A DNA stretch of 64,000 bases from a phage: NCBI GenBank assembly GCA_012178725.1, contig GCA_012178725.1_3030.1, one strand, 5' to 3'. The translations under genes were made by a program, and so were the position numbers. Under the pieces are notes generated by a model that ran no database searches, had not been told where the DNA came from, and worked only from the letters and a program-made list of their open reading frames with translations. Position 1 is the stretch's first letter. The number at the start of each line of letters is the position of its first letter. This document shows, piece by piece, positions 6,095 through 18,611 of the stretch.

Positions 6095-6131
6095 ATAGTT
6101 GTATAGTACCACAGTATGCTTTGGTTGTAAA
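6095..6131 (-). promoter_or_regulatory. T4-type early promoter upstream of motA
   Basis: Minus strand GTTTAC-18-TGGTACTATACA, conserved leader ACAACTATCAACTAC..., SD GGAGATTAG. Confidence 0.6.
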
Positions 6132-13790: not shown

Positions 13791-13820
13791 ATTATACCAC
13801 ATCCTTGTGGTAAAGTAAAC
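13791..13820 (-). promoter_or_regulatory. Early promoter upstream of rIIA.1/rIIA
   Basis: GTTTAC-18 bp-TATAAT; -35 overlaps gene 39 stop. Confidence 0.6.
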
Positions 13821-15640
13821 TACTGGCTCATCCATTCTTTACGAAGGTCAGCATTATCTCCCATGAGCATTTCAAAAAGCTCTTTCCAGTTCTCAGGAAG
13901 TTTAACAACATCATATACTGGATTTTGAATCATCTCACGATATTCAGATTTTTCCAAAGAGCCAAGTCCTTTAATATAACGGATGCTATGTTTAGGTAGA
14001 GCATCTTTGGCACTCTCATATTCAGCGACTGTATAAAACCATTCTTGTTTTTTACCGACCTGAGCGATGATTACAGGAGTTTTGACAAAGCGAATTCGTC
14101 CTTGCTCAAACAGTTCTGGCCAATTACTAAAAAATCCAAGAAGAGAAGGATAAATGCTTCCTAGACCATCATGGTCAGCATCAGTCATAATAGCAATATT
14201 ATGATAATTCAAGTTTTCAGCTTTTTCACCAAGAACTAGACCAGTGATTGCGCAAATATCAAACAGTTCTTTGTTTTTAAGCATATCTGCATAAGACATA
14301 CCCCAGCTATTAAGAACTTTACCACGCAATGGATAACCACCGTGAAGTTCTTTATCACGAACATCAATAAGATATCCGATAGCAGAATCACCCTCAGTCA
14401 AGAAAAGAGTAGTGTCAGCATCTTTACCGCAAAGATTCGCTTTGATATGTTTATGAACCTTAGCTTTAGAAGCCTTTTTAGCTGCTTTAGTTTCTGCTGC
14501 TTTTTCTGCCGCCAATTTACGAGCCAAAGCAGCTTCAATAATCGGCATTAGAATTGCTTCATTATTTAGAATAGCACGTGAAATCTTTTTAGCATCAAGT
14601 TGAATATGACTACGGATTTCACCAAATGGAGAAGTCAAACGCTCTTTAGTTTGAGAATCAAATCGCATGTTTTTCATATCACGAACAAACATAACGATAG
14701 TCAAACATTCTTTGACACGCGCTTTGGTTACATCAATTTTGAACTTACGTTTGATTTGTGGAATAAGGTCTTCACAAATATCATCCATAACACAGTCAAT
14801 GTGATGGCCACCATTCTTAGTATGAATGTTATTCACATAAGTTAATTGACGAAAACCATCCGGTGAACGACCAACTGCAATAGAACAATTTTCTTGTTCT
14901 TGAACGATAGCATGCTCATCATATTGGCGTGCATATTTCTTAAAATTACCCTGAACCTTTTTACCATTAAAGGTAAATTGAATATCAGGATAAACAACAG
15001 CAAGTGTCTGGAGACGATCTAGTGTAATGTCAAGATAAACTTGGGACAGCTCATTAGTTTCAAATGACATAAAATCAGGAATGAAAGTAACACGAGTTCC
15101 TTTCCATTTTCCTGGAATAGTTTCCCATGATTTATTTTCCATGCCATTTGAACAACGAACTACAATATTATTTTGACCATCGCCAGTTTCACCAACAAAC
15201 ATCACAGAAAAAATGTTAGTTAAACTAGAACCAACACCGTTCATACCGCCGGTGACGCGTTCTTTATCATCACCGAAGTTACCACCTGCTTTTGGAATAG
15301 TCCATGCAGCAACAGGACCAGGAATTTCTTCACCGGTAGGTGTTTTAACCATCGCTTGTGGAATACCGCGACCGTTATCTTCAACTGTTACTTGATTGTT
15401 TTTAATAGTAACGTTAATTTTATTTGCGAATTTAAACTTAGTACGAATACCTTCATCTACTGAGTTATCGATAATTTCATCAATAAGCTTAACAAGACCA
15501 GGTACATACTGAACACTTTCCCATTTACCAAACAGAAAGCGCTCATGCATTTCATTAGCAGAAGAACCAATGTACATGCCGCTACGCTTTTTGATATGTT
15601 CAATATCGCTCAGAATTTTAATTTCATTCTTAATCATCAC
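13820..15640 (-). CDS. 39: DNA topoisomerase II large subunit (GyrB-like ATPase), uninterrupted gene 39 (T4 39+60 equivalent)
   Basis: 606 aa; GHKL ATPase and TOPRIM-like motifs; one continuous frame with no gene 60 split. Confidence 0.95.
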   Translation of the reverse strand: MMIKNEIKILSDIEHIKKRSGMYIGSSANEMHERFLFGKWESVQYVPGLVKLIDEIIDNSVDEGIRTKFKFANKINVTIKNNQVTVEDNGRGIPQAMVKTPTGEEIPGPVAAWTIPKAGGNFGDDKERVTGGMNGVGSSLTNIFSVMFVGETGDGQNNIVVRCSNGMENKSWETIPGKWKGTRVTFIPDFMSFETNELSQVYLDITLDRLQTLAVVYPDIQFTFNGKKVQGNFKKYARQYDEHAIVQEQENCSIAVGRSPDGFRQLTYVNNIHTKNGGHHIDCVMDDICEDLIPQIKRKFKIDVTKARVKECLTIVMFVRDMKNMRFDSQTKERLTSPFGEIRSHIQLDAKKISRAILNNEAILMPIIEAALARKLAAEKAAETKAAKKASKAKVHKHIKANLCGKDADTTLFLTEGDSAIGYLIDVRDKELHGGYPLRGKVLNSWGMSYADMLKNKELFDICAITGLVLGEKAENLNYHNIAIMTDADHDGLGSIYPSLLGFFSNWPELFEQGRIRFVKTPVIIAQVGKKQEWFYTVAEYESAKDALPKHSIRYIKGLGSLEKSEYREMIQNPVYDVVKLPENWKELFEMLMGDNADLRKEWMSQ

Positions 15641-16524: not shown

Positions 16525-16950
16525 TTATTCCTTAAAGTGTGCTTTCAACATCTGATACAAGGACCATGCCTGTTCATTATTTTCAATAGTAACTTTCATG
16601 ACCGGGAATTCTGTGAAATCTTCTATTTGTTCTTGCTCTTTCTCTTCCTGCTCTTGCTCTTCAGCTGCCTGGTATGGATTTTCAACTTCATCAAAGAACC
16701 CAGCTTCGCTAGTAGAAAGCCAGATAAAGTTTTCGTCAAGGATATCACCATGTGTTGCATATCCAACTGTGCCAGTAGATGTCACAATTTTAGTAGGACG
16801 ACCAAGATGGTCAACATCTAAAATTTTAAAAGGATGCATACCTAAACGGCGCGCATAGATTCCGTTATCAGTATGATCTTTAATAAAATTTTCTTGAGCT
16901 TGTTTATTTTTAAATTGATACCATTTATTAACTTCAAATTTAATAGCCAT
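16525..16950 (-). CDS. goF: Hypothetical protein with acidic tail (goF-like position and size)
   Basis: 141 aa; acidic run [18 protein letters not shown]; position between 39 and motB. Confidence 0.4.
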
Positions 16951-17165
16951 TAATAAGTTTCCTTCCAGTAAGTTGTGCCATCTTCAGTAATTTCACGAAA
17001 TACACCGTAAATTGGTTGTTTATCACCAACCTTTTCATACACATAAACCGAAGTCAAGTGAGTAAACTTAACGGTATGTTCTTTTTGAACTACTACCAAA
17101 TCTGGATCGAATAGTACATCTTCAAATTCGTCATTAGTGCAATTCTGAACAATTTTACGTTTCAT
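16950..17165 (-). CDS. Hypothetical protein (cef-like position and size)
   Basis: 71-aa ORF; ATGA overlap with neighbour. Confidence 0.4.
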
Positions 17166-17178
17166 TACAATTTCCTCA

Positions 17179-17448
17179 TTAATTGAACAGTGGAGCGATG
17201 CGTTTCAGAAGAGTAGCAGCACCTTTAGCGAATTTTACATCATGAAAAACAGTTTCTTCTTCCGTTACAACACGAGCTTTAATGTTTTCACAATCCCAAT
17301 TTTTGCGAACAATCTTCAAAAGCTGCAGTAAATCTTTACATTCAGCAATATCGATAACACATCCACGAGAATCTTCCATTATCGCACGATAACCGTAAGC
17401 CATACCATAATCATTGAAAGATTGCTCGATGATAATTAAATTTTCCAT
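17179..17448 (-). CDS. Hypothetical protein
   Basis: 89 aa from ATG (MENLIIIEQ...) with GGAGAATAAA SD; track ORF starts at an upstream TTG. Confidence 0.5.
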   Translation of the reverse strand: MENLIIIEQSFNDYGMAYGYRAIMEDSRGCVIDIAECKDLLQLLKIVRKNWDCENIKARVVTEEETVFHDVKFAKGAATLLKRIAPLFN

Positions 17449-17545
17449 TTTATTCTCCAAGTTGTTTTCTGTATCAGTAGTTGATATTGATATAGTACCA
17501 TAATCAACTACTGATGTATATAGTTTTATGAAAAAATTTTAAACT

Positions 17546-18037
17546 TTATGCATAGCGAGCTTTGCTATAGTGTTTAATCCAACTTTCAGGAATGACTTTG
17601 TATGTTCCTAAAAATACCGCGTTGTATAACTTAACGCCATCTTCTACCCATTGATCAGTAATGTATGCACACATAGCGCGAGTACGGTTAACAACACCTT
17701 CCTCACCTTCAGTAAATTCAAACTCATAAGGAGCAACGAACTTAATAGCCTGACCGAGTTTCCACTTAAAGTCTACACCTACATGCGAAGTATCAATCGT
17801 TTCAATTCCTTTAGCGGGAACAGCTTTCAAAAACGCAGGCTCAAGAAATTTCCATCGAACATAACCAAACTGAGGTTTAGACATTCCATCTTTAGGAATG
17901 ATACGCACTTTTACTTCAGAATCTTCATCTTTAACACCATGTTTAAGCTGAATGCTTACGACTTCAACCAATTTTCCTGCTGCTTTAGAACGGGATTTAT
18001 CAGATACACGAGCAATTTCACCGATATTAATATTCAT
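17546..18037 (-). CDS. motB: MotB-like DNA-binding protein
   Basis: 163 aa; T4 MotB size and position; shares C-terminal motif with adjacent paralog. Confidence 0.6.
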   Translation of the reverse strand: MNINIGEIARVSDKSRSKAAGKLVEVVSIQLKHGVKDEDSEVKVRIIPKDGMSKPQFGYVRWKFLEPAFLKAVPAKGIETIDTSHVGVDFKWKLGQAIKFVAPYEFEFTEGEEGVVNRTRAMCAYITDQWVEDGVKLYNAVFLGTYKVIPESWIKHYSKARYA

Positions 18038-18110
18038 AATTATCTCTCACTTGTTAAAAAGATTTTATACTCCGCAGGACCATTATACTCTGGTCCCAAG
18101 AGTTTGTAAA

Positions 18111-18611
18111 CTAGCTTACACGAACATTAATCACTGCGCTGCGAGGAACTACAGAGTACTCTCCAGCATGAACTACGTTCAGAAGTTCAACACCATCTTC
18201 AATCCACTGATCAGTTACCCAACCGCCAATCGGATTCGCGAATGGACGACGAATATAAACTGCCTTACACAACAAATCAGTCGGGTCTTCAATTTTTTCA
18301 ACTGGTGTTACATACATAGAAACTAAATCCATATCAATATGGGATTTTTCTTGTTCTTCTTTTTCAATTTCTGTCAATAAATTGAAATCTTCTTCATAGA
18401 TGATGAATGATGATACCCTTCCATAATAGTTTCTAATTTCCATGTACACTGTACCAATGAGAATTCCGCTATTAACACTAATAACAGTAAAAGGATATCC
18501 GCCAGTTGTACCAAGAAGTTCCCAAAACTTGCTATCAGTCGTATTCGACATTGTCTGGAAATCAATTTCAGATGGTTTTTTCATTTGATACGTAGTATTA
18601 ATTTTAATCAT
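18111..18611 (-). CDS. MotB paralog
   Basis: 166 aa; C-terminal ...GGWVTDQWIEDGVELLNVVHAGEYSVVPRS vs MotB ...AYITDQWVEDGVKLYNAVFLGTYKVIPES. Confidence 0.55.
   Translation of the reverse strand: MIKINTTYQMKKPSEIDFQTMSNTTDSKFWELLGTTGGYPFTVISVNSGILIGTVYMEIRNYYGRVSSFIIYEEDFNLLTEIEKEEQEKSHIDMDLVSMYVTPVEKIEDPTDLLCKAVYIRRPFANPIGGWVTDQWIEDGVELLNVVHAGEYSVVPRSAVINVRVS

Follow-up and report, generated by a model that had tools for sequence, protein, structure and literature searches.

The 13-bp inverted repeat located in the 97 nt that separate the motB stop codon from the ATG of the ar1_010 open reading frame (ORF) is an ordinary example of the stem-loop of a PeSL (promoter-early stem-loop) cassette, a known class rather than a new type of element. 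Its most likely role, to which a probability of about 0.5 is assigned, would be that of an intercistronic insulator in RNA that reads through from motB. The repeat lies in a 64,000-nucleotide stretch of phage DNA, here called the window, whose source is a Tequatrovirus (T4-like phage) with 100% identity to Escherichia phage AR1 over positions 17100-18100. An earlier note on this DNA had left three options for the repeat, namely a strong RNA hairpin, a DNA cruciform or a protein-binding palindrome. Of the three, the RNA hairpin is the best supported, since stems at orthologous promoters covary, their G.U pairs favor the sense strand, and variation among close relatives stays off the paired bases.

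The promoter cassette and its surroundings

Alignment identifies the element as one more paralogue of the early-promoter unit repeated in T4, and the description in the earlier note of a degenerate promoter-cassette copy upstream of ORF 17179-17448 therefore holds. The cassette matches paralogous copies in the window base by base, at 6154-6078, 9531-9486, 36430-36361 and 63998-63913, and the leader that supplies its 3' arm recurs in the copies at 6110, 9530, 36386 and 62515. When the 112-bp intergenic region is compared with T4-like genomes, each genome contains 3-6 matches, one of which is a T4 site annotated as 'terminator / -35 / -10, early promoter 54.4'. A typical copy of the family reads AAAAATTTTTTCACAAAAC-GGTTTACA-(spacer)-TGTGGTACTATAC-AACTATCAACTACTGATACAG...GGAG...ATG, and the motB-ar1_010 copy reads AAAATTTTTTCATAAAAC-TATATACA-TCAGTAGTTGATTA-TGGTACTATAT-CAATATCAACTACTGATACAG-AAAACAACTT-GGAGAATAAAATG.

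The motB stop codon, TAA (17548-17546), abuts the cassette and is directly followed by the A/T-rich tract AGTTTAAAATTTTTTCATAAAAC (Table 1). A 17-nt spacer separates the -35 and -10 positions, and the 5' arm of the hairpin takes up the last base of the -35 hexamer together with 12 of the 17 spacer bases. The earlier note was right that the copy has no GTTTAC -35, yet the TATACA found at 17520-17515 on the minus strand keeps 5/6 of the T4-type hexamer. With standard sigma-70 spacing (6-7 nt past the -10), the predicted transcription start, at about 17486-17485, coincides with the first base of the 3' arm. The GGAG of the Shine-Dalgarno stands at 17458-17455, so that the ribosome-binding site begins 14 nt 3' of the stem. 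Also beyond the stem, at 17458-17448, a putative RegB/S1 site gives an exact 11/11 match to GGAGAAUAAAA, the 11-nt cleavage consensus of Durand et al. 2006 (PMC1702504). Much of this arrangement had escaped the earlier note, including the minus-strand orientation of genes and cassette, the origin of the 3' arm in the leader and of the 5' arm in the spacer, the perfect predicted RegB/S1 site past the stem, and the likeness of the layout to the described PeSL class. A MotA-box middle promoter was also considered and rejected, as TAGTTGA agrees with TGCTTTA at only 4/7 positions by eye.

All of the local genes are on the minus strand. The cef gene starts 13 nt after the ar1_010 ORF and is without a promoter of its own, and the nearest promoter upstream of the cassette is a near-consensus TTTACA-17-TATAAT at 18110-18082, before motB. 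In phages T4 and RB32, a 208-bp deletion between AAAATT microhomologies has removed most of the ar1_010 ORF and left an 11-codon remnant. Despite this loss, the intergenic region is intact and unchanged in both phages.

Table 1. Features of the motB-ar1_010 region, stems across the -10 of early-promoter-like sites, and variant sites in related phages (positions are those of the window)
Feature	Position	Strand	Remarks
motB.1	18111-18611	-	
motB (163 aa)	17546-18037	-	Pfam PF17613 motB, E = 1e-96; AR1 annotation
ar1_010 ORF (89 aa from ATG)	17179-17448	-	phrog_3720, function unknown; AR1 annotation
cef (71 aa)	16950-17165	-	Pfam PF24050 T4_Cef
goF	16525-16950	-	
gene 39	13820-15640	-	
A/T-rich UP-element-like tract AGTTTAAAATTTTTTCATAAAAC	17523-17545	-	Common to other cassette copies
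-35-position hexamer TATACA	17515-17520	-	5/6 to T4-type TTTACA, 4/6 to TTGACA
5' hairpin arm (ATCAGTAGTTGAT on the - strand)	17503-17515	-	Found in this cassette copy only
17-nt loop	17486-17502	-	Extended -10 TGG (17500-17498), -10 TACTAT (17497-17492)
Inner stem TGGTA with TATCA	17500-17496 with 17492-17488	-	Apical loop CTA
3' hairpin arm (ATCAACTACTGAT on the - strand)	17473-17485	-	Lies within the leader conserved across the cassette family
GGAGAATAAAA, Shine-Dalgarno and predicted RegB/S1 consensus match	17448-17458	-	ATG at 17448-17446
Stem across -10	site 62536	-	-23.2 kcal/mol
Stem across -10	site 36407	-	-19.4 kcal/mol
Stem across -10	site 19189	-	-23.5 kcal/mol
Stem across -10	site 18110	-	-16.8 kcal/mol
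Stem across -10, motB-ar1_010 cassette	site 17520	-	-18.9 kcal/mol
Stem across -10	site 9272	-	-22.5 kcal/mol
Variant sites	17517 and 17472		VEc74
Variant site	17471		G4500, ESh24, L030
Variant site	17495		JE01
Variant site	17501		SG1

The motB-ar1_010 cassette is one of several in the window with a stem across the -10. A scan of the window with the pattern T[TA]TAC[AT]-N16-18-TAYWAT identified 18 early-promoter-like sites, all on the minus strand, and at 6/18 of them such a stem reaches -16.8 kcal/mol or better, against a baseline of 1% for random 55-nt windows (binomial P = 2e-8). Five sister cassettes (62536, 36407, 19189, 18110 and 9272) carry GGAG(G) within the 3' arm. It is possible, if tentative, that selection maintains -10-straddling stems as a general feature of early promoters in T4-like phages, either as a start-site-dependent RNA switch or by acting on promoter opening in the DNA. 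Were the switch true, read-through and locally started early transcripts would differ in decay, RegB cleavage or translation. Either mode of action would amount to an insulation rule for early genes, one that has so far been loosely proposed ('terminator/attenuator') and is undissected in T4.

Hairpins also occur at other positions in the cassettes. A local-hairpin survey, in which even window lengths were scored, was applied to the other cassettes and not to the 43-nt hairpin itself. Cassettes 26488 and 6131 have classical terminators upstream of the -35, the former with a UUCG tetraloop and then a T run, and cassettes 13819, 59564 and 9551 have small hairpins, such as CCACAAGGATGTGG, within the spacer. 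The stem positions in these other cassettes correspond to the positional subclasses in Arbiol et al.

Fold and conservation of the repeat

The sequence confirms that atcagtagttgat (17473-17485) and atcaactactgat (17503-17515) are exact reverse complements of 13 bp with 17 nt between them, as the earlier note had described, and that the loop carries the -10-like core. On the plus strand, the arms read ATCAGTAGTTGAT at 17473-17485 and ATCAACTACTGAT at 17503-17515, and positions 17492-17497 of the loop read atagta, i.e. TACTAT on the minus strand. Complementarity in fact extends further inward, such that arms of 20 nt, set 3 nt apart, reach 85% complementarity. The inner 5-bp stem, TGGTA/TATCA, contains one G.T pair and closes on a 3-nt apical loop.

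No other perfect inverted repeat with a loop of 3-40 nt anywhere in the 64-kb window is as long as this 13-bp one. Nevertheless, when the whole window was dinucleotide-shuffled 200 times, 11.5% of the shuffles also contained a repeat of at least 13 bp (mean 0.135), and the length of the repeat taken alone is thus only weakly significant. The folding-energy estimates proposed in the earlier note gave folds well beyond those of shuffled sequence. As minus-strand RNA, a 121-nt segment folds at -24.8 kcal/mol (z = -4.1), with 0/200 shuffles as good, and the 55-nt promoter segment folds at -18.9 kcal/mol (z = -6.6), an energy reached by 0.33% of random 55-nt windows on the minus strand. The stem over the -10 (13 bp + 5 bp) comes to between -18.9 and -20.2 kcal/mol, with z about -6. 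Its computed pairing probability in read-through RNA contexts is about 0.9 or more, and at least 0.98 at most positions; that of the inner stem is at least 0.77. Folded as DNA, the repeat gives -11.5 kcal/mol (z = -5.1). A search of positions 17300-17700 with the Rfam 15 covariance models gave no match at E <= 1 on either strand.

The strongest support for the hairpin is its conservation together with covariation in other phages. The 53-bp hairpin region is identical in 434/516 related phage records, T4 and PST among them, whereas for the surrounding 1 kb most records have a best match of less than 99% identity. The comparison with T4 and other close relatives suggested by the earlier note has thus found the repeat present, not absent. 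None of the substitutions sampled touches the stem. In a spread sample amounting to a handful of the ~80 variant records, 5/5 variable sites fall among the 17 unpaired positions and 0 in the 36 paired ones, for which (17/53)^5 = 0.003. The two changes in VEc74 create new C-G and G-C pairs, so that its stem has 15 bp instead of 13; the -35 of this phage, TATGCA, lies further off consensus. Matches H90-H92, at 80-85% identity, were rejected as diverged orthologues, for they represent another cassette near tRNA-Arg, with GTTTAC intact and no 5' arm.

This conservation bears on the quite unlikely alternative that the repeat is a functionless by-product, in which one template-switch (quasi-palindrome) mutation placed an inverted copy of 13 leader nucleotides in the spacer of a decaying promoter, where it has since persisted. 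Such an event would account for the sharp borders of the 13-nt complementarity, beyond which only 3/9 positions match, and would sit well with the degraded -35, with the loss of most of the downstream ORF in T4, and with the frequency at which shuffled windows produce a repeat of this length. It would not account for 53 bp kept identical in so many genomes, though spacer bases normally vary freely, or for sampled substitutions that spare paired bases and in two cases extend the stem. Nor would it predict the independent, covarying stems at the same place in other genera, or the stems in 5 other cassettes. A neutral template switch may well explain the origin of the arm, but not its conservation.

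In other genera, relatives of cef that are 45-68% identical have a hairpin-bearing promoter directly upstream of the gene. These promoters retain an intact -35, GTTTAC or GTGTAC, and carry different inverted repeats across the -10, including GGTGTAGGAG/CTCCTACACC, GGTAGGAGC/GCTCCTACC and GATAGGGTA/TACCCTATC. Further arm pairs are AGGGCTAT/ATAGCCCT and GGTCTAT/ATAGACC, the latter with the variant TGTCTAT/ATAGACA. When 17 distinct sequences were aligned on the -10 without gaps, 79% of cells could pair, compared with 34-49% when the partner column was slid. Double changes were found in 8/13 pairs, and the observed value was reached by 0/500 shuffles; RNAalifold independently predicted 9 pairs for these promoters, of which 5 covary. 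The loop center of the T4-type stem is ~2.5 nt off the register of the other-genera stems, and the two kinds of stem are therefore analogous but not demonstrably homologous. Covariation of this sort is evidence for selection on structure, and it is absent from the original PeSL papers.

The protein-binding palindrome raised by the earlier note fares poorly against these data. It would be an operator through which a dimeric phage or host regulator represses the promoter, and its attractions are two 13-bp half-sites that bracket the -10 with their centers 30 bp apart (about three helical turns), along with the fact that the shut-off of T4 early promoters is not fully explained (Hinton 2010, PMC2988021). 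However, the arm sequences differ completely among genera and only their complementarity is kept, and arm length and register vary as well. The 3' half-site is moreover nothing but the leader shared by many cassettes in which the 5' half-site is missing, and the phage protein MotB binds DNA non-specifically (PMC7827196). As pairing is conserved across genera and sequence is not, such an operator is very improbable.

Another means by which the repeat could act is as DNA, with an extruded hairpin or cruciform either promoting recombination among cassettes (PeSL shuffling, mini-circles) or altering promoter opening by exposing the -10. The DNA fold given above is compatible with this idea, the adjacent ORF is polymorphic for presence, with the variation beginning 4 nt past the cassette ATG, and the covariation at the cef promoters would suit pairing in DNA and in RNA equally. 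The far end of the T4 deletion, however, lies in coding sequence at an AAAATT microhomology, with no second cassette there. A cruciform also requires pairing on both strands, whereas the G.T pairs favor the sense strand, with 23 G.U cells on that strand against at least 3 A.C/C.A cells at the cef promoters; of these 23, 15 come from one pair fixed by the TGn and -10 consensus, and the argument from strand is accordingly modest. An occasional benefit from recombination would poorly explain the long-term presence of a stem at one locus across genera, and sigma-70 promoters are not known to use extruded hairpins. On balance, an element acting as DNA is unlikely.

Proposed role in read-through RNA

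The position of the predicted start suggests how an RNA stem-loop could operate here. RNA from the embedded promoter would begin at the 3' arm and so would not include the 5' arm, which means that the hairpin could form only in RNA reading through from motB. Transcripts from the strong promoter upstream of motB would hold both arms and could fold over ~20 stacked positions (13 bp, a 2x2 internal loop and 5 bp) at about -19 to -20 kcal/mol. The stem-loop would then stand between the motB stop codon on one side and the predicted RegB/S1 site and ribosome-binding site on the other. Relative to the rest of the family, the cassette is altered in two ways: the -35 has been weakened to TATACA, and the spacer now complements the leader exactly over its first 13 nt.

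There, the stem-loop would either attenuate transcription from upstream or, more probably, bar 3'-to-5' decay. The second is preferred because no U tract follows the stem. As a decay barrier, the structure would fix a stable 3' end for the motB mRNA after RegB or another endonuclease has cut just downstream. The literature searched contained no mapping of transcript starts or ends for the motB-cef interval.

Classical intrinsic termination on the sense strand is unlikely for the same lack of a U tract. A canonical intrinsic terminator was considered and set aside for either strand, the sense tail after the stem being ACAGAAAACAAC, with no T, and a terminator consensus scan having given no call. 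The T4 records NC_000866, AF158101 and M89919 and the PST record KF208315 list no promoter or terminator features at the site, only CDS, and one GenBank record annotates the hairpin as a WebGeSTer rho-independent terminator. That annotation would also suit an antisense (plus-strand) or bidirectional terminator, for which the plus-strand RNA has a similar fold (-24.6 kcal/mol, z = -3.7) and GTATATAGTTTTATG follows the stem. Yet the T run on this strand is short and lies ~9 nt past the stem, the consensus scan reported no terminator, and the wobble pair of the inner stem becomes an A.C mismatch in a weaker inner fold. With no plus-strand genes converging at the site either, a terminator for that strand is highly unlikely.

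It is also conceivable that the stem works as a start-site-dependent switch on translation or RegB cleavage, in which read-through RNA hides the ribosome-binding or RegB site and locally started RNA exposes it. T4 is known to use such a logic (Uzan and Miller 2010, PMC3014915), RNA structure inhibits RegB (PMC1702504), and the five sister cassettes with GGAG(G) in the 3' arm have the required arrangement. In the motB-ar1_010 copy, by contrast, the GGAG is well clear of the stem, as is the Shine-Dalgarno at the other-genera cef promoters. The computed probability that the Shine-Dalgarno is unpaired is 0.37-0.57 in read-through RNA versus 0.32 in RNA from the predicted start. The read-through form thus leaves the site no less accessible, and for this copy masking of the ribosome-binding site was rejected. 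Likewise, the predicted RegB/S1 site is left unpaired by the stem, and its computed accessibility is similar with or without the 5' arm. A switch of the type known from e, soc, 49 and I-TevI thus fits the five GGAG(G)-arm sister cassettes rather than the motB-ar1_010 copy, where it is decidedly doubtful.

An insulator in read-through RNA remains the preferred reading for this copy. The value of the site as a discovery is small, because it fits a published class and the same sequence occurs in T4. Its value would rather be as a clean test case, with a perfect stem, a unique 5' arm that can be mutated without touching the promoter hexamers, and a motB region that can be dispensed with, motB and its surroundings being dispensable for phage growth (Durand 2006, PMC1702504). 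The locus could therefore settle whether -10-straddling stem-loops serve in attenuation, in 3'-end protection or in nothing at all.

Comparison with known systems

The closest counterparts are the PeSLs themselves. In Arbiol 2010 (PMC2839356), their stem-loops lie mostly between the -35 and -10 or over the -10 and are proposed to be terminators or attenuators of upstream transcription; places upstream of the -35, over the -35 and just past the -10 also belong to the class. The paper reports that one stem-loop cut lacZ expression about as much as rrnB T1, and in it attenuation and promoter activity are demonstrated for RB49/phi1 examples only. Comeau 2014 (PMC4122927) extends PeSLs to T4/PST, mentions degraded copies, and gives the T4/PST early promoter consensus as TTTACW-N17-TAYWAT.

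The motB-ar1_010 cassette resembles these elements in being intergenic, in having the upstream stop codon within an A/T-rich tract 5' of the -35, and in its predicted sigma-70-type early promoter with a 17-nt spacer and a stem-loop over the -10, which is a described position. It also ends 3' in a Shine-Dalgarno and ATG, belongs to a family with many copies per genome, and adjoins a functionally uncharacterized ORF whose presence varies among close relatives. The differences are in detail. The -35 is TATACA where PeSLs have TTTACW, although the -10 TACTAT, the TGn and the spacer all fit. The stem is A/T-rich and perfect over 13 bp, in contrast to the polyG/polyC stems of RB49, and the stem-loop tested by Arbiol was itself a G/C-rich RB49 element. 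The stems reported for PST/T4 are of the form 'AGNA-loop-TCNT' and lie upstream of the promoter, unlike the cassette stem, and the T4 deletion next to the cassette is not flanked by two PeSLs.

As a promoter, the cassette is to be compared with the T4 early promoters, which are built as UP/-35 GTTTAC/TGn/-10 (Hinton 2010, PMC2988021). It shares with them (window copies 6131, 9551, 36407, 62536 and 63975) the UP-like tract, TGn, TACTAT, 17-nt spacing and leader. It differs in the loss of a key -35 base (second T to A), with 8/12 hexamer matches at a scan threshold of 9.

Start-site-dependent inhibitory hairpins are known from T4 e, soc, 49 and I-TevI (Uzan and Miller 2010, PMC3014915). There, as would be the case here, a promoter lies within the DNA for the 5' strand of the hairpin, and read-through RNA folds where local RNA does not. 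Those promoters are late, however, and the stem hides the Shine-Dalgarno or AUG, whereas the cassette is early and its Shine-Dalgarno lies outside the stem.

Bacterial promoter-coupled terminators provide another comparison. They take their -35 from the stem and carry the T tract in the spacer, and their 3' end falls ~10 bp before the start (Fletcher et al. 2026 preprint, 10.64898/2026.08.19.745784). The cassette is similar in that the DNA of a stem-loop overlaps the promoter of the next unit in a compact intergenic element, but its stem is placed across the -10 and has no T tract; locus L022/L067 resembles that class.

Finally, intercistronic hairpins can stabilize messages, as with the RNase III sites of T7 and the REP hairpins of E. 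coli. The cassette is like them in being a stable intercistronic stem-loop with no U tract, next to a predicted endonuclease site. By analogy, the protected 3' end would remain on the upstream message.

Variation at the locus among related phages

In Escherichia phage VEc74 (L072, MT932213), two A-to-G changes relative to the window, at 17517 and 17472, flank the arms of the hairpin, and each creates one new pair, so that the 13-bp stem becomes one of 15 bp. One of these changes also turns the -35 into TATGCA, a poorer match to the consensus than the hexamer in the window.

The ar1_010-type ORF (phrog_3720; 17179-17448) carries a 208-bp frame-shifting deletion in T4 (L005) and RB32 (L002), which, in an alignment with the window ORF region (A1), is internal to the ORF and flanked by AAAATT microhomologies. 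An 11-codon ORF remnant, ATGGAAAATTCGC..., is what remains in the motB-cef "intergenic" region of T4. The junctions of other phages vary slightly (ATGGAAATTCGC, ATGGAAAATTTGC and ATGGATAATTCG), which points to one of two histories: the sequences diverged afterwards, or the deletion occurred more than once.

The topoisomerase large subunit is encoded in the window by one 606-aa ORF (13820-15640, - strand), the "60plus39" form also present in RB32, wV7 and PST. In T4, by contrast, the gene is split into 60 and 39; since the window ORF is unsplit, this phage lacks the bypass element of gene 60.

Components of the repeated cassette

Three copies of the early-promoter cassette carry TTGGAGAATAAA(A)TG, which includes the published RegB/S1 consensus GGAGAAUAAAA (Durand et al. 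2006, PMC1702504), so the site that RegB prefers seems to be carried along as a component of the cassette. Three cassettes also have a small recurring hairpin, CCACAAGGATGTGG or ACCACAAGGACCGTGGT, entirely within the -35/-10 spacer, and this arrangement is a further subclass of the promoter-early stem-loops, or PeSLs (Arbiol 2010, PMC2839356; Comeau 2014, PMC4122927).

Cassette-associated features in the window
Feature	Position	Strand
TTGGAGAATAAA(A)TG, with RegB/S1 consensus	17458-17448, 9497-9486, 63924-63913	-
Spacer hairpin, CCACAAGGATGTGG / ACCACAAGGACCGTGGT	13819, 59564, 9551	-
Canonical intrinsic terminator AAGGACTCCTTCGGGAGTCCTTTTTT, UUCG tetraloop	about 26540-26510	-
Canonical intrinsic terminator AGGGAGAGCCGAGGCTCTCCCTTTTTT	about 6205-6180	-
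Stem across the -10 (promoter-like sites)	62536, 36407, 19189, 18110, 9272	-

A closely related cassette copy (80-85% identity), with GTTTAC intact and without the 5' arm, is present in L068-L070 (PV654520, KY608965, NC_055749); in Mosigvirus genomes it lies downstream of tRNA-Arg. An entry named "Pseudomonas phage vB_PSGBLB0006" has this copy too, a host label that looks doubtful for T4-like coliphage sequence.

Terminators and stems across the -10

Canonical intrinsic terminators lie immediately upstream of two cassettes. Upstream of a cef relative in IMGVR_UViG_2706795719_000001 (L022/L067), a stem of AAAAGAGGT and ACCTCTTTT has a loop with TTTACAAG, and its T tract falls within the spacer and is followed by TATTAT. 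This terminator provides the -35 of the next promoter, and in that respect resembles the "promoter-coupled terminators" of a preprint by Fletcher et al. (2026).

In five other early-promoter cassettes of the window, a stem with a folding energy between -17 and -24 kcal/mol spans the -10, and its 3' arm holds the GGAG(G) Shine-Dalgarno of the downstream gene. The ribosome-binding site and RegB site of these sister cassettes would be masked in read-through RNAs but not in locally initiated ones, an early-promoter version of the start-site-dependent hairpins of e, soc and 49 (PMC3014915).
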